Notes: a model not told the origin generated them from the letters alone. A stretch of DNA of 64,000 nucleotides from an uncultured Lachnospiraceae bacterium (GCA_902781655.1 CACZJZ010000018.1:7119-71118); one strand, 5' to 3'; numbered from the stretch's first letter, positions 36,439-47,854 are shown. Made by a program: numbers and translations.

Positions 36439-36441
36439 CAT

Positions 36442-36514
36442 GGGGCATTAGCTCAGTCGGTAGAGCACTTGACTTTTAATCAAGTTGTCGCGGGTTCGAT
36501 TCCCGCATGCCTCA
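36442..36514 (+). tRNA. tRNA-Lys(TTT)
   Basis: CTTGA-CT-TTT-AA-TCAAG anticodon arm. Confidence 0.95.
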
Positions 36515-36524
36515 GTTTTCAAAG

Positions 36525-36567: not shown

Positions 36568-36692
36568 GCGTCTCACGAGTGAAACTGTAGTACCAAAAAT
36601 TGGACGATTTTCCGACATTTTGGAATAAAAGTTGACACGAAACTTGGCACGAATTGTCATGAAGAGGCTGACTTTTCAAAAAACTTGTTCAT

Positions 36693-36724
36693 GAAGCCCC
36701 TCGCAGAGGGGCTGGTATTGAAAT
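36693..36724 (+). CRISPR. Solitary CRISPR-like repeat, copy 1 (type I-C architecture)
   Basis: GAAGCCCCTCGCAGAGGGGCTGGTATTGAAAT: 32 nt, hairpin at positions 4-20, 3' end ATTGAAAT. No cas genes in the window. Confidence 0.55.
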
Positions 36725-37164
36725 CTTGAAGCGTTTAACACAAAGGGTGCGCTGAAAGTCCGCTCTGCCCTGCTCAGATACACCGCGGAGAAATACCAGG
36801 GAGACGAGCTTATCCGGAGCGTGGAGAAATATCAGGATGCCTATACCGCAGTGGAAAAGACGAAAACGGTAAGTGCTGCCATGGGCGAGATGATGAATGA
36901 CGCCATGTCCGGCATTTTCTCATCGAAGGAAGGCATTCATGATCTTTCAGAATGGCTGAATAAAAAGCAGGGCGTAAAGGAACAGAAATCAGTTCTCGGA
37001 ACGCTGGCGGACCATTTCAGGGGAATAGAGACCGCCATGCGTAATCTGCTCAACAGGGGCACTCTGACTTCATCCGGGCGCCATGCTGCCATGATCGCAG
37101 AGAAGAATGCATCGAAGATCCGGAAGATGATTCTGGACGAGATGGATGTGGCAATCGAAAATGC
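36693..37164 (+). repeat. 472-bp direct repeat (repeat unit plus constant coding block C1), copy 1; copy 2 at 40926-41397
   Basis: Manual alignment gives about 17 substitutions, mostly at third codon positions. Confidence 0.95.
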
Positions 37165-38012
37165 GCAGAATGCGTCGCTGGATGAGAACGCGAAGAGTTC
37201 TGCAGCATATTCAGTCGGCGATTATGTTTTCGGACAAAAATCCTATACGTATGATGCAAAGAACAATGAGTTTGTATCGGATGATGGCCGGATTATCCCA
37301 GTGGCGGACAAAATTTTCTCTGTTAGCGATATAAAGAATGCAGAATACATTGTTCGTGAATTAGTTGCTGATCGAAAAGGTCCGCATATCGAGGAGATTT
37401 TCTAAAAAATATACCCACAACGGATTTATGAAATACGCGCCAGCAAAAGATAAGTCTGTCAAGATGAACATGTCTGCTGATGTGACCGACCTTATCGAGA
37501 ATGCAACCGGACTACGGCATGAACCTGATAAGAATGGGAAACATGGTGTATTCGCTGGAAGAGGATGGAATTATTATGACGCAGATATTGCTGTAAAGTT
37601 CAGAAACGAGTATCAGATATTCCGATCGGAGCTGCAAATAGCGTTATGTTTATGATATAAAGAATCCAAAAAAATCTCATCATGGGGTGCGGCTACTTCG
37701 GAAAATCCTTCTGCCTCACTGACTGGGAAGCCAGCTTTACGCCCCATGAGAGATTTATCTGCTAATAGTGTAGTGCAAGAAAGCAATGAAGTCAATGCAA
37801 AGCAGGATTATCAGGAGATCGAGGATAGTGTTCCGGATGTCAAACGCTTCTCCATCGATGTAGACCATACGGTCCAGCAGACGAAAGACCTGATTGCTGT
37901 TCACAACCTCAATGAGGAGAACCTGCGGTTTTCTATCAATATCAGCGATGCTGAAAAGAAGCAGATTTTTTTGCTACAAAAAATGGAAATGAGATAATTA
38001 TTTATATCGGCC
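36725..38012 (+). pseudogene. Cassette 1: polyvalent-protein fragment (C1 + frameshifted LPD3/BECR-like domain + J)
   Basis: ORF pieces 36821-37405, 37365-37655 and 37746-37997. DLIENAT...KH...GWNYYD and YVYDIK motifs are split across frames. Confidence 0.7.
37872..37969 (+). repeat. 98-bp identical repeat (junction block J); second copy at 42194-42291
   Basis: GTCCAGCAGACGAAAGACC...GAAGCAGATTTT. Its 5' half also matches 39069 onward and its 3' half resembles 40418-40441. Confidence 0.95.
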
Positions 38013-38224
38013 ACGCTGGCGGACCATTTCAGGGGAATAGAGACCGCCATGCGTAATCTGCTCAACAGGGGAACTCTGACTTCATCCGGGCGCCATGCTG
38101 CCATGATCGCGGAGAAGAATGCATCGAAGATCCGTAAGATGATTCTGGACGAGATGGATACTGCTATTGAGAATGCGCAGAATGCGAAGGTCGATGAGAA
38201 CGCGAAGAGCTCGGCGGCATATTC
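38013..38224 (+). repeat. Partial third copy of C1 (matches 37001-37212)
   Basis: ACGCTGGCGGACCATTTCAGGGG...GCATATTC. Confidence 0.93.
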
Positions 38225-40925
38225 TCTCACAAATAAGGACGATTATGCGATCTTCCTTTATCAGAATAATGATGAACAGAAGAGAGACGAGAGGCTAAGA
38301 GATACAAGTATAAAAATAGAAAATGCGAATAATGAAAACTATTCACAGCTTACTAAAGGTCAACTTTCGTCTATCGTGAATGCAAGATCGTTAAAAGAGA
38401 TTGAGAATATTTTCAAAAATTACTGCGGGAAAATAAAAATATGGGGAACGCAGTTCCGCTCTCCTGAACTCGATTTTGAATATGGATTTTCTGTCGGCGC
38501 ATTGCATGAAAGCGTACACAAGCAATCATTAATTAAAACTGGTAGTGAGGAAAATAACAAATTTTTAGCTCTTGCCAAAGCGATTGCGTCTGCAAATAGT
38601 ATCACAAGCAACGCAAAGTTACTTGAGATGCATACGGACCAGGATTATGCGAAAAGCATTGAGCCGAATCACAAAGTAAATTCTAATATTAAATATACTT
38701 ACGAGCTTATTTCCGGCTATATAGATGGGGAAAATATAGTTCCAGTAAAGATTACAGTTAAGGAATATTTAGAAAGAGCGAATACACCAAATATGATGTA
38801 TGTCCTTGAATCATTACCTGCAATAAATAAGGACAGCATCACTATGAAGGCCATCCCTGACATGAATCAGGGAAGACGCGACACTCCGCTGTCCGATAAC
38901 TATAGTTTAGCAGACATTCTTAGCGTTATCAAGAATAGCGCAGCTGATGACGAACGGCTTGATAAGGCAGTCGGCAGATATATTCCCGATCAGTTTGCCA
39001 ATACAACAAAATCATTAACTGAGAATATCCCGACTAAAGCAAAGTTGTCCATTGATGTAGACCAGCCTGTCCAGCAGACGGAAGACCTGATTGCTGTTCA
39101 CAACCTTGACGAGGAGAAACTGCTTGCCGACATCAACGAGCTTGGCGGCTTCCCTGCTCCATCCATTGCTATCATCCGGCAGGGGATGGAACACAATGGA
39201 TATGGGGATATTTCAGTTCTGTTCGAGAAGGACACGATCGACCCGGAACGCAGCAAGTACAACCATGTGTATGGTGGGGATGCGTGGACACCTACATTCC
39301 CGTCCGTTGAGTACGACATCAATAACGATGTTTTTTATAAGGCCAGAGAGAAATTCAAAGCTCTTAAGGGCAGAATCCTGTCTTATCTTTATGAGGAGGC
39401 GCTGCGGGTCAACAATAACGGAACAGGAAACGTCGAATATTCTGGTATGGATAGCTTTGTTCAGAAGATGGAGCAGAACTACGGAATCCGTGCTGCATAT
39501 GTCGCTTCAAAGGGCATTCAAATTGATGACAATGCGAAGCGGACGGAAGTTGGCAAATATGATGATAGCGAAGTAAAGGCGTTCGAGGCAGAGCGCAATA
39601 CCCTGAGTCATATCGGCGTTACGGGCGAAGAGCTTCGCGAAATGCCGGTTAATCAAGTAAAACAGGAATACGGGGATCTTAGACTCCAGGCATATCAGGA
39701 TAGGGCCAATACCATGGACAAGAAGAAAGCGGAACGGTTCATGGAGAAAGCAAAATCCAATTATGATGGCCCGGTCTTCGTGTTCAGAAACATGGTGGAT
39801 AGCATTGCCAATGCGTTGGATTATTACAAAAATGGAAATCCGACGCATACAGAATATGAACGCGATGAGAATGCTATCCGGGAGAAAATTGATTCGAATA
39901 TCAATGAGAAGGACCTTGAAAGCTGGATCAGGGACACCTATGAGGGCCTTGTTGGGAATAAAGGTATCTCTAATGGGGTGGACCCGTATACTCCATCCGG
40001 TAACCGGAGGGGCTTCCGTGCAACACATTATGCATTCATTCTTGATAATGTTGTCCGCGCTATGAGAGAACAGCAGGCCGAAAAAGGAGCTAACGCGTTT
40101 GCTGAAACCGGATTTACTGCTGTATCTACGAAGGATTTCAAGAATATCGATGATATTCACGCAAATGAAGATCCGATACAGAGCCTTTCGGAAGAGGAAT
40201 ATAAGAGCCTGCGAAAGAACATAGACGACAAGGTAGATGAAATTGCAAACTTGAGGCAAAGCCGATGCGGGCCGTCGGTCTGGAAGAAATTGCGGACGTA
40301 ATTGCTCCGGATACTGTCTCTGACGAACTGAAGCAGGCACTTGAGAGCAATAACATTCCGTATGAACTGTACAAGGCAGGAGACAACGCAGACCGTACAC
40401 TGAAGATGAATGCGCATGAAAATCTGCGGTTCTCAATCAATGTTGATAATGAAGGAAACCAGCTGAGCCATGACCAGAAGAACTATTTCAAGAATTCAAA
40501 AGTCCGTGATGATGAAGGAAATCTTCTTGTTATGTATCATGGTACTCCGCAGGGCGGCTTCACAAAGTTCCGTAACGGTCTCACTTATTATTTCACAAGT
40601 AACCCAGAATATGCACAGGAGTATGAAGGAAAGAATCCCCAGCGCGGACAGCAGAGCAATCCTCAGATTTATAAGGTATATCTGAATATTACTCATCCGT
40701 TTGATACCAGAAATGCTGCTGACCGGAAACTGTTCATAAATCAGTATGCGAAGGGAGGATATGCCCTTGGCATTGACCCATACAGCGGCGAGACAGGACT
40801 TTCAGAGAATGGACTTCCGGATTGGAATGAAGCAGATAACATTTATGATTTCCTTGAAGAAAATGACCTGCTCGATAAGTATGATGGTATGGTCATTGAT
40901 GAGGCAGGAAGCGCACGAGGCTCAG
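38013..40925 (+). pseudogene. Cassette 2: polyvalent-protein fragment (partial C1 + LPD3-like domain + LIAVHNL domain + truncated ART-like domain)
   Basis: ORFs 38049-40301 and 40265-40954, with a frame change at about 40250. Motifs LHESVHK...VPVKITVKEY; LIAVHNL...GGFPAPSIA...DAWTPTFP; YHGT...YYFT...VYLNITHP. Confidence 0.72.
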
Positions 40926-40957
40926 GAAGCCCCTCGCAGAGGGGCTGGTATTGAAAT
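40926..40957 (+). CRISPR. Solitary CRISPR-like repeat, copy 2 (identical 32-mer)
   Basis: Same 32 nt as 36693-36724, 4233 bp downstream. Confidence 0.55.
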
Positions 40958-40990
40958 CTTGAAGCGTTAAATACAAAGGGCGCGCTGAAA

Positions 40991-42670
40991 GTGCGCTCTG
41001 CCCTGCTCAGATACGCCGCGGAGAAATACCAGGGAGACGAGCTTATCAGGAGCGTGGAGAAATATCAGGATGCCTATACCGCGGTGGAAAAGACGAAAAC
41101 GGTAAGTGCTGCCATGGGCGAGATGATGAATGACGCCATGTCCGGCATTTTCTCATCGAAGGAAGGTATTCATGATCTTTCTGAATGGCTGGATAGGAAG
41201 CAGGGCGTAAAGGAACAGAAATCAGTTCTCGGCACGCTGGCGGACCATTTCAGGGGAATAGAGACCGCCATGCGTAATCTGCTCAACAGGGGCACTCTGA
41301 CTTCATCCGGGCGCCATGCTGCCATGATCGCGGAGAAGAATGCATCGAAGATCCGGAAGATGATTCTGGACGAGATGGATGTGGCCATAGAGAATGCAGC
41401 GAAAGCGAATGTGGTGGAAGGAGTTGGAGAAAACAAAGTATTTTCTCTCAAACAACAGGAGAAAACAAAATTAAGAGACAGAATAAATCTGGTAATGCAA
41501 GGCAGAAATTTTGAAAATGATATGGTATTTCTGAGAAATACTCCAAAAATATTGATTGATGAAATAGGACTTGAGGATATTCCAATGGCCATGACATCGA
41601 ATCATGTATATTCAGATATCGTAAGCAGAGAAGAAGCAATCAGAAATGGAAGATTCAAAGAGAAAGTAAATTATCACGACTTAGGAAAGTATGGGTTTAT
41701 ACATGCAATCGACAATCTGGATGATCCAATAATCATTGTAAAATCCAGAAACGAGGATGCAAACACAGATATTGTTGCTGTAACGGATACCATTGATAAA
41801 AATGGAAATACCGTACTGGCTGCAATTCGAGTGGGGAAAGAAGGTAACATTTCTGGAACGAGAACCTACATCAATGATATTGGAAGTGTTTATGGAAAGA
41901 AGAATACGATTATTGGATATATTGAGAATGCCTATAGCAAGGGGAGAATATTGTATTTGAACAAAATTAAAGCCAGAAATGAGAATGCACCCGGGTTCCA
42001 ATTACCCGACCGGATCCTCAACACTGGCTTTAAGTCAAATGTAGAACACTATAGGGACATTGTCAATAAAAAACGCATAAATAAACAAAATCAAAATACG
42101 ATAGCAAGCCAGAGAAAGGCAGAAAATGATATATCGAATAAAATCAATGATCTACCAGAAGAAAGACATTTCTCCCTTGATGTGGATGAGCCTGTCCAGC
42201 AGACGAAAGACCTGATTGCTGTTCACAACCTCAATGAGGAGAACCTGCGGTTTTCTATCAATATCAGCGATGCTGAAAAGAAGCAGATTTTAAATGAAGA
42301 GAAAAGACTTCAAAAGCAGATCGATAACTGGAATGGAATTGATGAGTCGATACATTTTGAGGTAGCAAAAACTCCGGATATTCTCAAGAACAAACTGAAT
42401 TTTGAATCTTTGTCCATAGAGATCGACTCTTCAAAGGTGAAGAAAATAAGTGTACAGAAGATAACGAGTACATACGCAAAAGAAAACGCCCAGCATATCC
42501 TTGATCAAAGCGATATTGAGTACGTTAATCAAGACAAAAAAATTACCATCAGCTGGCAGAAACTTACTAGGCTCCAATTGCCGTTCGTGAATCTGAATGC
42601 TGGTGGTTATAATAATACTTTATCACACAGTGCGAACATCAGCAATAACATTCAAACTCCCGGTTTATAA
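40991..42670 (+). CDS. Cassette 3: open polyvalent-protein fragment (C1 + MuF-C-like domain + J + internally deleted second MuF-C-like domain)
   Basis: 559-aa ORF with a GTG start. TPKILI..GLEDIPMAMT..H...HDLG...DPIIIVKS...NDIGSVYGK; later TPDILK and KITSTYAK...LQLP. Confidence 0.65.
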   Translation: MRSALLRYAAEKYQGDELIRSVEKYQDAYTAVEKTKTVSAAMGEMMNDAMSGIFSSKEGIHDLSEWLDRKQGVKEQKSVLGTLADHFRGIETAMRNLLNRGTLTSSGRHAAMIAEKNASKIRKMILDEMDVAIENAAKANVVEGVGENKVFSLKQQEKTKLRDRINLVMQGRNFENDMVFLRNTPKILIDEIGLEDIPMAMTSNHVYSDIVSREEAIRNGRFKEKVNYHDLGKYGFIHAIDNLDDPIIIVKSRNEDANTDIVAVTDTIDKNGNTVLAAIRVGKEGNISGTRTYINDIGSVYGKKNTIIGYIENAYSKGRILYLNKIKARNENAPGFQLPDRILNTGFKSNVEHYRDIVNKKRINKQNQNTIASQRKAENDISNKINDLPEERHFSLDVDEPVQQTKDLIAVHNLNEENLRFSINISDAEKKQILNEEKRLQKQIDNWNGIDESIHFEVAKTPDILKNKLNFESLSIEIDSSKVKKISVQKITSTYAKENAQHILDQSDIEYVNQDKKITISWQKLTRLQLPFVNLNAGGYNNTLSHSANISNNIQTPGL

Positions 42671-42777
42671 TGCAAGAGAAGCGGGATAAATCCCCCGGCG
42701 CGAATATCGCTGACATTAAGAATAATGCGGGATGATAATATAATATTATAGGGAAGGTCTCAGGCAGGAGAGAGGAT

Positions 42778-43551
42778 ATGCAGACTCGTAATTTCAAGTT
42801 TATCATCAGCTATGATGGCACGCGGTATTTTGGCTGGGAGCATCAGCCGAATACGGAACTGACGATTCAGGGAAAGCTGGAGAGGGTGCTCACGGAGATG
42901 CACCAGGCGGAACACGGCGCGCCGCCGGAAAAGCCGATTGTCGTGATCGGCGCGGGTCGCACGGATGCGGGCGTGAGCGCGCGCGCCATGACGGCGAATG
43001 CGCTTCTCGACACGGCAAAGTCGGAGATGGAAATTCAGCAGTACATGAACCGTTATCTGCCGGAGGATATCAGCGTCAGCGAGGTGCGGCAGGCAGCGGA
43101 TCGGTTTCACAGCCGCTTTAAGGCGGTCGGCAAGACATACCGCTATACGCTCTGGTACAGCGGAGACGGGACAAAGCCGGTTTTTGACCGGAAATATGTC
43201 TATGTGCTCGAAGAAAAGCCGGATCTGGCACGCATGGAGGAGGCTGCAGCGCGGCTGTGCGGGATGCATGACTATCGTTCCTTCTGCGGCAATCCGCATA
43301 TCAAAAAATCCACGGTGCGCGTCGTGGACACCATCCGGATTGAGACAAGCGGGCGCTATATTCGTCTTTATTTCCATGGAAACGGATTTCTGCAGAACAT
43401 GGTCCGGATCATGACCGGGACGCTCCTGGAATGCGGATATGGCAAAATCCGTCCTGACGAGATCGACGATATTCTGGAGGCCCGCGACCGGAAGCGGGCC
43501 GGTTTTACCGCGCCTGCCTGCGGGCTGTGTCTGATGAAGGTGGATTATTGA
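42778..43551 (+). CDS. truA: tRNA pseudouridine(38-40) synthase
   Basis: SYDGTRYFGW, GAGRTDAGVSA, GFLQNMVRI, TAPACGLCL. Confidence 0.95.
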   Translation: MQTRNFKFIISYDGTRYFGWEHQPNTELTIQGKLERVLTEMHQAEHGAPPEKPIVVIGAGRTDAGVSARAMTANALLDTAKSEMEIQQYMNRYLPEDISVSEVRQAADRFHSRFKAVGKTYRYTLWYSGDGTKPVFDRKYVYVLEEKPDLARMEEAAARLCGMHDYRSFCGNPHIKKSTVRVVDTIRIETSGRYIRLYFHGNGFLQNMVRIMTGTLLECGYGKIRPDEIDDILEARDRKRAGFTAPACGLCLMKVDY

Positions 43552-43554
43552 AAT

Positions 43555-45612
43555 ATGCTCTATGAAATAAGGGATGGATCTGTGAGTCAGCAGGGGGAGC
43601 CGGTGCTTTCCCACTTTGATTTTGCAATCCGCGGGACAGAAAAAATAGCCATCGTCGGGCGGAACGGCGCGGGCAAGTCGACGCTGCTGGAGGCGCTCGC
43701 GGGAGAAAAGGAAATCGAAATCAACCGCAAAAATCCTGCGTCAGGAGTCTTCCGGTCGAGAGCGTTCACGGTAGGAGTACTGCGGCAGCAGGCCTGTGAA
43801 AACCCGGATGAGACGGTGGAAGACTGCATTATGAGGGGTGTGAAAGCACTCTGGAAGAACGAGCGGGAATTCCCCCCGGAGGCGATGATGCCCGAAGAGA
43901 ACATGACAGTGCAGGGCGTGGCATCCGAAGCGGACACAACAGTGCAGGGCGTGGCATCCGTGGGAGTGAATGACGATATTGCCGAAAGCGCCGGACTGTA
44001 TTCGCGGGAGCGGTATGATTTTGAACAGCGTTATGACCGTATCTTCACAGGATTCGGGTTTTCCCTGGAGGATAAGAAGAAAAAGCTGGGCACGTTTTCC
44101 GGCGGGGAGCAGACGAAGATCTGCCTGATCCGGCTGCTGCTGGAGGAACCGGATGTTCTGGTGCTGGATGAGCCGACCAATCACCTCGATCTCGCGGCGG
44201 TGGAGTGGCTTGAGACATATCTGCGGGCGTATTCGAAGGCGGTGGTGTGCGTGTCGCACGACCGGTATTTTCTCGATCAGACGGCGGAGGTGGTCTGGGA
44301 GGTGTCGGGCGGGCGGCTGACCCGGTATGTCGGAGGATATACAGCGTATCGGGCGGAGAAGCAAAAGCGGGCTGCAAAGGCAGCGAAGGCTTATGAGGCG
44401 CAGCAGGCGGAGATTGCGCGGCTGAGCGACCTGATCCGGAAATTCCGCGGCAAACCGCGCAAGGCCTCGTTTGCCCGGTCCCGCGCCAAAATTCTGGAAC
44501 GCATGGAGCGGATGGAAAAGCCGGATGCGGATGAGGCTGTCATTCACACAGGCGCCATTTTGCCAGCCCGCCCGGGCAGCAGGTGGGTGGTGGAATGTGA
44601 GGATTTGAAGATCGGATATGACCATCCGATCCGGGAGCTGTCACTGCGCATCAGGCGGGGACAGAAGATCGGAATCATCGGGCCGAACGGCACCGGAAAG
44701 TCAACCTTTCTCAAGACGGTGGCGGGTCTCCTTCCATCGATTGCGGGAAAATGCAGGGTAGGGGAAAATGTTGATCTCGCTTATTTTGACCAGATGACGG
44801 CGCGTTTCACGTCGGACAAGACGGTGATCGACTGGTTTCACGATCAGTTTCCGGCGATGGAGATGGGAGAGACGAGGCGAGTTCTCGCCGGGTTTCTGTT
44901 CCGGGGAGACGATTGTGGAAAACCGGTGTCGGGCTTGTCGGGCGGAGAAAAGGCACGGCTGATGCTGGCGGCGATTCTGGAGAGGCGGCCGAATTTTCTT
45001 GTGATGGACGAGCCGACTAACAATATGGACATTCCGGCGAAGGAAACACTGGAGTCGATCTTCCGGAGCTTTCAGGGAGCAATTTTGTTTGTGTCGCATG
45101 ACCGTTACTTTCTCAGCCAAGTGGCGGAGGCACTGCTGGTGTTTGAACCGGGGACGAACAGAGTATGGTACTATCCCGGGAACTATCGGCATTACAAGGA
45201 ACGAAAGGATCGCGTTCAGGCGGGGGAGGATGCCGATCTGCTGCGGACAGCGGAGGAACAGAGGCTGATCGAGGGGCTGCGTTCTGTTCCGAAGGGCGAG
45301 AAGGGGATGCTGCGGCGCATTTCGGATGCGGAGCAGGAGTTTGACTGGCGCTTTGCGGTGAACCGCACCGGGCGTGAGACTGCGGAGCAGGCGTTCGCAG
45401 AGGCTTTGGAGCGCGCGGAATATGCGGATGCGGAGCGGGCGCGGGATATCTGGACCCGGACGCTTCTTGACTGGTATGATATCTGGCTCGACCGGGAGGC
45501 GTACCGGCACGGCGTTTCTGCGCCGGAAGAAGGGATGAGCAGTGAGGAAGAGGAATGTTCTGCACAGGAACAGAATGCGGCCGGACAGGACGGACGACAG
45601 GCCGGCAGATAA
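43555..45612 (+). CDS. ABC-F family ATPase
   Basis: Two ABC cassettes (GRNGAGKST / FSGGEQTK and GPNGTGKST / LSGGEKAR), no transmembrane domain. Confidence 0.9.
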   Translation: MLYEIRDGSVSQQGEPVLSHFDFAIRGTEKIAIVGRNGAGKSTLLEALAGEKEIEINRKNPASGVFRSRAFTVGVLRQQACENPDETVEDCIMRGVKALWKNEREFPPEAMMPEENMTVQGVASEADTTVQGVASVGVNDDIAESAGLYSRERYDFEQRYDRIFTGFGFSLEDKKKKLGTFSGGEQTKICLIRLLLEEPDVLVLDEPTNHLDLAAVEWLETYLRAYSKAVVCVSHDRYFLDQTAEVVWEVSGGRLTRYVGGYTAYRAEKQKRAAKAAKAYEAQQAEIARLSDLIRKFRGKPRKASFARSRAKILERMERMEKPDADEAVIHTGAILPARPGSRWVVECEDLKIGYDHPIRELSLRIRRGQKIGIIGPNGTGKSTFLKTVAGLLPSIAGKCRVGENVDLAYFDQMTARFTSDKTVIDWFHDQFPAMEMGETRRVLAGFLFRGDDCGKPVSGLSGGEKARLMLAAILERRPNFLVMDEPTNNMDIPAKETLESIFRSFQGAILFVSHDRYFLSQVAEALLVFEPGTNRVWYYPGNYRHYKERKDRVQAGEDADLLRTAEEQRLIEGLRSVPKGEKGMLRRISDAEQEFDWRFAVNRTGRETAEQAFAEALERAEYADAERARDIWTRTLLDWYDIWLDREAYRHGVSAPEEGMSSEEEECSAQEQNAAGQDGRQAGR

Positions 45613-47787: not shown

Positions 47788-47854
47788 TTGTCCCTAACGA
47801 GTTTAGCTTGTTTGGTACAATTTGTACCAAACAAGCTAAACTCGTTAGGGACAA
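47788..47854. repeat. Perfect 67-bp palindrome (33-bp arms, 1-nt centre)
   Basis: TTGTCCCTAACGAGTTTAGCTTGTTTGGTACAA-T-TTGTACCAAACAAGCTAAACTCGTTAGGGACAA. Confidence 0.95.

Follow-up and report, generated by a model that had tools for sequence, protein, structure and literature searches.

An insert of about 6 kb, made up of pieces of a single phage gene, lies between a tRNA cluster and truA in the metagenome-derived genome of an uncultured Lachnospiraceae bacterium (GCA_902781655.1). It occupies positions 36693 to ~42692 of the window, by which we mean the whole 64,000-nucleotide stretch analyzed here (CACZJZ010000018.1:7119-71118, one strand, counted from its first letter). The insert comprises three constant-variable-constant units, each with a left constant segment (C1), an interior with an effector module, and a right constant segment (J). 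The gene of origin encodes a polyvalent protein, one of the virion proteins thought to be injected as a phage toolbox against host defenses.

Composition of the insert

Two of the units share their borders and differ in what lies between (Table 1). Positions 36689-37212 align with 40922-41445 as a left-border repeat, within which the repeat plus C1 (36693-~37175 versus 40926-~41408) is ~96% identical, with 19 mismatches over 487 nt. The right borders, 37872-37969 and 42194-42291, are identical at 98 of 98 positions. By their length and identity, these border repeats are far beyond chance, and the interiors that they enclose (LPD3 in the first unit, MuF_C in the third) do not align with each other. 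An earlier reading made without database searches (the sequence-only reading) had already described shared borders around unrelated interiors, and both the repeat analysis and pairwise alignment bear this out. It had also taken the left border for a phage repeat followed by C1. The repeat is there, but its first 32 nt are an exact copy of a CRISPR repeat, which that reading missed. Similarly, the partial C1 and third interior that it assigned to cassette 2 were both found, but the unit extends beyond the slot through a complete PBECR5 domain, a conserved tail of ~0.7 kb and a truncated ART-PolyVal domain, as far as 40925. Cassette 3, too, continues beyond its J, with a truncated second MuF_C module at 42292-42667.

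In cassettes 1 and 3, J consists of the start of PBECR5 fused to the next LRFSIN linker, and the same kind of deletion is present in L008, a contig from a close relative. The interior of cassette 2 is related to P0004, an LPD3-like protein from L008 that is itself only a weak match to LPD3. The coding path through the insert runs along the + strand in frame 2 (36722-37402), frame 0 (37365-40298) and again frame 2 (40241-42667), and is broken by two frameshifts and by in-frame stops at 37653, 37995 and 40952.

Hidden Markov model (HMM) searches, which the sequence-only reading had proposed, identified LPD3 (weakly), MuF_C and ART-PolyVal, plus PBECR5. Polyvalent proteins are characterized by at least two conflict-effector domains, and the insert contains LPD3 (weak), PBECR5, ART-PolyVal, MuF_C and a second MuF_C fragment. 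In addition, their domains all belong to a single unbroken polypeptide, the gene for which is located with virion or late genes; that arrangement is absent from the locus and was found only in the parent gene, on phage contig L010 (described below).

Table 1. Features of the insert and its junctions, in window coordinates
Feature	Position	Strand	Evidence
tRNA-Lys(UUU), last of a six-tRNA cluster; chromosomal flank, co-oriented with the cassettes	36441-36515	+	ARAGORN; Rfam tRNA, 77 bits
R1, exact 32-nt type I-C CRISPR repeat GAAGCCCCTCGCAGAGGGGCTGGTATTGAAAT, opens the insert	36693-36724	+	Identity to the L029 array repeat
C1 copy a (P0009 residues 1139-1302)	36725-37212	+	blastn to L010, 94.8%; tblastn, 92% amino acid identity; phrog_22978 positions 1014-1180
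Interior 1, broken LPD3 effector module	37213-37871	+	Pfam LPD3, E=4e-4, at 37377-37550
J copy 1: first ~19 PBECR5 residues, LRFSIN linker and first 9 codons of a MuF_C-type module	37872-37969	+	Pfam PBECR5 positions 2-33
Filler at an illegitimate joint, with in-frame TAA at 37995	37970-38006	+	No phage-gene homology; same filler in L008
Partial C1, C-terminal ~75 residues (P0009 1228-1307)	38007-38224	+	92% to copy a; tblastn
Interior 2, no Pfam family; homologue of the LPD3-like interior of L008 (P0004)	38225-39029	+	BLASTP versus P0004, 36%, E=2e-35
J' plus complete PBECR5 nuclease domain (39057-39728) plus conserved tail	39030-40250	+	Pfam PBECR5, E=1.9e-45; 95% to L032 over 1,199 nt
Pre-ART linker (P0009 1973-2036) plus C-terminally truncated ART-PolyVal (40508-40753)	40251-40925	+	Pfam, E=4.6e-12
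R2, second exact 32-nt repeat; its TGA ends the ART frame	40926-40957	+	Sequence identity
C1 copy c	40958-41445	+	blastn to L010, 92.9%, starting exactly at 40958
Interior 3, MuF_C (PBECR-fold) module, apparently complete, in an open 559/571-aa frame	41446-42193	+	Pfam MuF_C, E=1.1e-15, positions 4-102/103
J copy 2	42194-42291	+	Identical to 37872-37969
Truncated second MuF_C-type module with internal deletion, then TAA stop	42292-42670	+	Pfam MuF_C, E=4.9e-4, positions 57-100
Right junction zone of the insert	42671-42704	.	G008 and L008 alignments

Insertion site and assembly

The nearest species (G008) has an empty site, in which ~30 nt separate the tRNA-cluster flank (up to window position 36693) from the truA flank (window position 42705 onward). 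Its flanks are syntenic with those of the window and 90-95% identical (95% for the left flank up to 36693). Homology to G008 stops at 36693, and chromosomal homology has returned by 42705-42707 in the alignments with G008 and L008. The insertion point is 178 nt past tRNA-Lys, also beyond its terminator, with the six-tRNA cluster on the left and truA (42778-43551) on the right. GC content is 36-50% inside the insert and 55-58% in the flanks. None of 36 congeners carries a homologue of the insert, and a whole-genome protein search and blastn found no other copy of any part of it in the rest of the genome. The earlier statement that no other phage genes survive holds. Downstream of truA, an ABC-F ATPase gene contains a 33-nt tandem duplication (43892-43957, 88% identical) that adds an 11-residue repeat (…VQGVAS…).

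A tRNA-adjacent position, AT-rich DNA of phage derivation and visible decay are all in keeping with an ordinary deletion product of one complete prophage at the tRNA-Lys site. However, prophages and islands at tRNA genes are recognized by an integrase and by attachment (att) repeats overlapping the tRNA 3' end, and neither was found here. The insert begins ~180 nt past the tRNA and its terminator, no direct repeat of at least 8 nt is common to both junctions, and no open reading frame (ORF) or remnant of an integrase is present at the insert. Moreover, the three partial copies come from diverged alleles, which a single prophage cannot supply, and no relative has a prophage at this site. We regard this origin as very unlikely.

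An assembly artefact, that is, a chimera of co-occurring phages, was also considered, as the genome is metagenome-derived and differs by two indels from other assemblies of the locus. Two further assemblies of ~100 kb (L033 and L034), which include both chromosomal flanks, confirm the order of the units. The window differs from them only in lacking 47 nt behind position 37373 and a further 23 nt behind 37643, and these gaps represent either population micro-deletions or assembler differences. Identical stretches shared by the repeats do not exceed 98 nt, a length that an assembly with k=141 can bridge. Contigs from two more samples (L041 and L042) begin exactly inside the J repeat, as expected of a genuine repeat, and L008 independently has ART, the repeat and C1 in succession, joined to truA. 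The tandem structure is not a one-off artefact of assembly, and a chimera is scarcely credible. The comparison with L033 and L034 also yielded a self-inverted BLAST hit, at a 67-nt near-perfect palindrome (47788-47854) at the end of a convergent phosphoesterase gene.

The parent phage gene and its effector slot

A search with C1 against 1.8 billion representative proteins returned 159 matches (E <= 0.001). Among the 150 of these that were listed, most are proteins of 2,400-4,500 aa in which C1 is located near residues 950-1,300. The best full-length match, P0009 (3,492 aa, 93% identity), is encoded on phage contig L010, with holin, lysozyme and a 506-aa gene upstream. Nucleotide homology to L010 begins exactly at 36725 and 40958, at 93-95% identity. 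The segments of the insert are all of phage origin and all fall within P0009 residues 1139-~2040 plus the ART module, which correspond to positions 1014-1895 of the 3,513-position family phrog_22978. These placements support the earlier proposal that the three units derive from one polyvalent-protein gene region. A megablast search with the whole insert found no match in phage collections, the C1 protein had none in IMG/VR or in the genome_contigs collection, and a DNA pattern for the start of C1 was found nowhere in IMG/VR.

In full-length relatives, C1 is followed by ART, by ART and PBECR3, by two MuF_C modules, by LPD3 and ART, or by unknown modules. As different effectors occupy this position in full-length phage proteins, the hypervariable effector slot after C1 is real, and the sequence-only reading was right to attribute a swappable slot to phage polyvalent proteins. 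Copies a and c of C1 have 25 differences over 456 nt, which affect 13 codons synonymously and 8 non-synonymously; four of the eight non-synonymous codon differences are at the variable boundary. Since the differences are mostly synonymous, the divergence of the two copies took place between functional phage alleles and not after a duplication in the chromosome.

A short motif, R-[FHY]-S-[LI]-[DN] (RFSID, HFSLD, LRFSIN, RYSLD and others), recurs between the effector modules, at 37900-37925, 39050-39075, 40430-40450 and 42222-42247 of the window, and also in the full-length proteins P0009-P0025. The motif coincides with several recombination and deletion joints, and could also be where a protease cleaves the polyvalent protein.

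Structural decay of the coding path

All of the frame breaks are structural and fall at joints or deletions. Cassette 1 has the 47-nt and 23-nt window-specific deletions, which create a frameshift and a TGA, as well as a 1-nt shift at an A7 run. With the 47 and 23 nt restored, as in L033 and L034, it forms an open C1-LPD3 frame up to the A7 run. Comparison with L032, a contig of the second lineage described below, points to a deletion of ~190 nt with a frameshift at 40250/40251. The ART-PolyVal domain covers only positions 1-86 of the 140-position profile and is missing the last strand (seen in P0160), and the second MuF_C lacks ~75 residues relative to P0003. That the breaks sit at joints and deletions, two of them newly arisen in an otherwise identical lineage, argues against selection on the coding frames. 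Stop recoding under an alternative phage code was rejected, as the seven stops are a mixture of TGA and TAA and each lies at a joint, a deletion or the repeat. Defense-system HMMs (PADLOC) had no match in the insert; the only long antisense ORF (39507-40436) likewise matched no PADLOC family and was not scanned against Pfam.

CRISPR repeats at two of the joints

The 32-nt sequence GAAGCCCCTCGCAGAGGGGCTGGTATTGAAAT occurs at R1 and R2 and has no further copy in the genome. The Lachnospiraceae isolate L029 has the same 32 nt as the repeat of a chromosomal array with 49 repeats and 31-35-nt spacers. This array adjoins a gene with a best NCBIfam match to type I-C Cas1c (below the curated cut-off) and has trpE/trpG on its trailer side; the L029 genome is a distant relative without a polyvalent homologue. 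Across 300 genera of the family, sampled with one genome apiece, the repeat was not found, nor was it in any IMG/VR contig. In L028 (OCVV011244822.1), a single exact copy occupies positions 436-467, flanked on one side by a fragment of a Phd/YefM-like antitoxin gene and on the other by an IS21-family element (istA/istB) at its left end; this mobile-element setting has no connection with the polyvalent gene. IS21 was rejected as the origin of the border, since it is just a neighbor in L028 and the genome of the window has no IstA homologue. The border hairpin was also considered as an integron attC site, an insertion sequence (IS) end or a repetitive extragenic palindromic (REP) element, all rejected because the 32 nt are an exact CRISPR repeat. 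An Rfam scan returned tRNA only.

Homology to the phage sets in at the very base that follows each copy. R1 joins chromosome to C1, and R2, which is flush with phage DNA on both sides, joins the truncated ART to C1. The host itself has a complete type I-C operon (cas3-cas5c-cas8c-cas7-cas4-cas1) outside the window, on contig C8:305-12511, with Cas5c, Cas8c, Cas7c and Cas1c above curated cut-offs, adjoining a 61-repeat array that is built on another repeat, GTCGGGTCCCGCAAGGGACCTGTGGATTGAAAT. Both GAAGCCCCTCGCAGAGGGGCTGGTATTGAAAT and GTCGGGTCCCGCAAGGGACCTGTGGATTGAAAT adopt the same fold, which consists of a stem of 8 bp and a tail of 11 nt that ends in AUUGAAAU; from 11 nt before the repeat end, the sequence at R1 and R2 begins GGUAUUGAAAU. 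Host spacers 1, 2 and 3 (leader-proximal) and 44 match L010 with 1, 0, 3 and 1 mismatches, respectively, over the full spacer length, and a 5'-TTC protospacer adjacent motif (PAM) is present at all four L010 protospacers. The host has therefore recently met the phage with the gene that the cassettes resemble, and the matches provide a recent host-phage link for L010, a Logan phage contig that otherwise has no annotation. The insert itself is matched by none of the host spacers, that is, there is no self-targeting. A second host array (C26:4829-5502) has 10 copies of a 35-nt repeat, GTCAATGCCCTTAATCGGGCTCTCTCCATTTCTAC, with 36-41-nt spacers, none of which matches the insert or L010.

The arrangement of R1 and R2 has one attribute of a CRISPR array, as at least two direct copies of a bona fide repeat define an array and two exact copies are present. 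Spacers of ~30-40 nt, a terminal repeat, a leader and adjacent cas genes are lacking: the two repeats are 4,201 nt apart, and the cas operon and the host's own arrays are on other contigs and have a different repeat. No degenerate repeat within 9 mismatches was found in the 30-40 nt range after either R1 or R2, nor was there one at the right end; a hairpin at the right end has only GAAGC in common with GAAGCCCCTCGCAGAGGGGCTGGTATTGAAAT.

Both pieces of phage DNA might nonetheless be giant spacers in a two-repeat mini-array, the 4,201-bp piece (36725-40925) and the ~1.7-kb piece (40958-~42690) having been joined to the repeat through Cas1-Cas2 integration at a solitary repeat or through spacer-protospacer recombination. 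Such an origin would account for two complete repeats with phage DNA from the first base after each and on both sides of R2, and for the exact duplication of the repeat next to C1 copies that diverge by 4-5%; the host's type I-C adaptation is active against the same phage, and the foreign repeat folds like its own. Nevertheless, the parts of an array listed above are missing and the repeat is foreign to the host. In the closest phage allele (L010), GTG rather than a TTC PAM precedes the start of C1, which is negative but not decisive, and none of the 48 L029 spacers matches the C1 start or the ART end. Furthermore, the two pieces share their start nucleotide and have J at 100% identity, which fits duplication and gene conversion better than two integrations. 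On balance, we consider giant spacers unlikely.

Alternatively, R1 and R2 could be solitary repeat units, that is, isolated known repeats in phage-derived DNA that match the host subtype, as is the case here. Solitary repeats have been described in prophages, and some of them are RNA anti-CRISPRs (Racrs), one of type I-C (Camara-Wilpert et al. 2023, PMC10651486). The repeats would then be Racr candidates from an anti-defense region of a phage or mobile element, with the polyvalent fragments as cargo. No array or cas gene is nearby, and the subtype (I-C) agrees with that of the host system, as it does for 83% of prophage solitary repeat units (PMC10651486). R2 overlaps the stop of the upstream ART frame, comparable to RacrIC1, located 11 nt after acrIC5 (PMC10651486). 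The single copy in L028 lies beside a toxin-antitoxin pair and IS21, and the fold equals that of the host repeat. However, the parent gene in L010 has no repeat at this position, and I-C-like solitary repeats were found neither in L010 nor in the arrays of a second lineage (described below); the repeat is in no IMG/VR contig, a promoter scan found no consensus just upstream of R1 or R2, and R2 cuts the ART domain instead of following a complete gene. A Racr-like role for the repeats is thus rather improbable.

Module exchange among relatives and in a second lineage

The L008 contig has flanks 97% identical to those of the window over 3.5 kb and contains, in order, a truncated ART, the repeat (with one loop mismatch), C1 (96%), a different LPD3-like interior and J, which meets the truA flank where it does in the window. 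Neither the PBECR5/tail stretch nor the second MuF_C is present. Between the same repeat plus C1 and J, L008 therefore carries an LPD3-like module and the window a MuF_C module, so that interiors have been exchanged between constant flanks across strains, as in silent-cassette systems. Comparison of the tRNA-Lys to truA interval, which had been suggested along with the sequence-only reading, revealed this interior swap as well as the empty site in G008 and the micro-deletions relative to L033 and L034.

Arrays of the same gene region were also found in a second lineage, with housekeeping flanks only ~70-76% identical to the genome of the window. They are strain-variable and located between tRNA-Leu and pyrF (L031, L030 and the complete locus L043; also L045 and L046), and a further array adjoins nrdR (L009). 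Only parent residues ~884-2142 are represented, as scrambled partial copies with joints in partial C1 such as that of ...EELREI to VATMAEKR... Some samples have an extra 438-aa ORF in the array, which has an HTH_38 domain and is possibly a transposase. One component protein of these arrays, P0166, has 46 member sequences; the contig collection indexes it in 35 blocks, and 24 contigs were read.

Modules common to both lineages are 93-96% identical, whereas C1 is only 68-72% identical. For example, the PBECR5/tail of the window is 95% identical to L032, L030 and L009 (1.2 kb), and the pre-ART segment is 95-96% identical. Judged by eye, a protein closely similar to the LPD3 interior occurs in the second lineage, and the L008 interior is closely similar to one in L030 despite a different C1. 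Because slot-only arrays turn up again beside a tRNA gene in another lineage, simple random decay of a prophage does not describe the locus adequately, as the sequence-only reading had argued. Module sharing at 93-96% across hosts with ~70-76% housekeeping identity represents a concrete and testable route for phage module exchange via the chromosome.

The same observations might suggest a dedicated silent-cassette reservoir or trap, which would either supply effector modules to infecting or resident phages or sabotage them by recombining in defective modules. The strain-level swap of an interior between conserved borders, the recurrence of such arrays, in many sample variants, at another site in another lineage, and the 93-96% identity of modules in different C1 backgrounds are compatible with this, and recombinational cassettes for polyvalent proteins were raised by Iyer et al. 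(PMC5512222). Against it, whole-genome protein search and blastn found no full-length expression locus sharing the constant regions, and a full-length parent gene in a resident prophage was sought in the genome and not found; no recombinase is present at the locus, and no separate small ORFs that could encode immunity proteins lie between the modules. The likeness to vls/pilS loci or orphan polymorphic-toxin modules drawn in the sequence-only reading fails on these same components. In addition, the breaks are all structural, with new deletions within one lineage, and neither repeat has a promoter consensus upstream. A reservoir or trap is about as improbable, in our estimate, as a Racr-like role of the repeats.

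Origin of the array

The explanation that we favor, with moderate confidence, is that the insert is an orphan, decaying array that was built and remodeled by homology-anchored and illegitimate recombination with infecting phages. The locus would be a partly decayed recombination substrate and not a gene library with an expression site, and a dedicated function would be absent. All of its fragments derive from the central, effector-slot part of one gene, that for the giant polyvalent virion protein of a phage infecting this host, and they were inserted ~180 nt past tRNA-Lys in a lineage with the site still empty in its sister species. Because two joints are the exact foreign I-C repeat, the founding DNA passed through a junction of repeat and phage DNA. 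That junction may have stemmed from a solitary repeat unit on phage or mobile DNA (Racr-like), from recombination between a phage and an array, or from integration by adaptation enzymes. Recombination between phages and CRISPR arrays through spacer and protospacer is one possible source of such junctions; a literature search on it returned nothing usable.

Once in place, C1, J and the R-F/H/Y-S-I/L-D/N linkers could act as homology arms for incoming DNA of related phages. Homology on one or both sides would result in a clean swap of an interior, as in L008, and one-sided homology with an illegitimate join would add partial units, such as the partial C1 after the filler or the joint of PBECR5 to partial C1 in the second lineage. 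Recombination at short motifs (ENL...RFSIN) would remove internal stretches, and repeated rounds of these events may have produced the tandem constant-variable-constant units.

Several observations weigh against such a passive origin. Only the slot region has been kept, in two lineages, and in both just downstream of and co-oriented with a tRNA gene, which is more regular than neutral debris. Three long open frames (750, 229 and 559 aa) persist in AT-rich DNA. The full repeats and the phage DNA abutting both borders of R2 resemble a Cas1-Cas2-type product and would not be expected of generic illegitimate recombination, and the duplication endpoint exactly at the left border of the repeat is left unexplained by a passive model. 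The regularity across two lineages keeps a functional reading alive at modest probability. More speculatively, and in our view quite unlikely, the arrays could be a maintained store of effector-slot DNA transcribed by read-through from the tRNA genes. The repeat might make the start of each unit a Cascade-loadable guide or decoy RNA against C1, or might mark kilobase spacers taken up by the adaptation machinery; CRISPR-type junctions and homologous recombination together would then preserve, on the chromosome, the hypervariable portion of a phage counter-defense gene as a memory or as a depot for exchange.

This locus and its parallel in the second lineage, another gut bacterium, are examples of tandem, strain-variable stocks in host chromosomes that consist of exactly the region that is swappable in the phage gene. 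A repeat fused to kilobases of phage DNA, in a host with a CRISPR system that targets that phage, bears on the capture of large pieces of invader DNA and on the role of solitary repeats. Even if the arrays are merely debris, they mark past encounters between phage and host as well as recombination hot spots (C1, J and the RFS linkers).

Comparison with known systems

The domain repertoire of the insert (LPD3, PBECR5, MuF-C and ART-PolyVal) is that of the polyvalent proteins described by Iyer, Burroughs, Anand, de Souza and Aravind (2017, PMC5512222), and the parent is a 3,492-aa protein of the virion module. In that study, chromosomal copies without mobile-element context were read as host-acquired remnants (a "third context"), and cassette-like small ORFs near one polyvalent locus were suggested as possibly recombining into it. 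Features not described there are the lack of an intact polypeptide, one sub-region in tandem partial copies, variation among strains, and CRISPR repeats at two of the joints.

Orphan modules of Rhs and contact-dependent inhibition (CDI) systems, MuF polymorphic toxins of temperate phages (PMC5576092) and vls/pilS loci share with the insert variable modules, constant flanks that can serve as homology arms, and a tandem, strain-variable organization. Unlike in those systems, there is no full-length expression gene and there are no immunity genes, constant sequence lies on both sides of the variable part, and the presumed recipient is in an infecting phage.

As with the solitary repeat units and Racrs of PMC10651486, the repeats are exact single copies away from arrays, in phage-derived DNA, that match the I-C subtype of the host, and one copy directly follows a coding frame. 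They differ in being located at recombination joints within a fragmented structural gene region and in lacking an evident promoter. The insert also resembles oversized inserts in spacer positions, in that kilobase DNA of a phage gene lies exactly between two full repeats (36725-40925), although here it is outside any array, next to a foreign repeat, and without a terminal repeat, leader or cas genes.

In 2014, De Paepe et al. reportedly observed that phages recombine with cryptic prophages by relaxed homologous recombination. The insert is similar to defective prophages that act as gene donors, being chromosomal phage-derived DNA with mosaic identity to circulating phages and a plausible donor or acceptor, but it consists of a single hypervariable gene segment, tandemly multiplied, with no other prophage genes. 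What appears to be new is the combination of slot-only tandem orphan arrays, turnover of modules among close relatives, sharing of modules across hosts, and CRISPR-repeat joints in a host with a CRISPR system that targets the parent phage.

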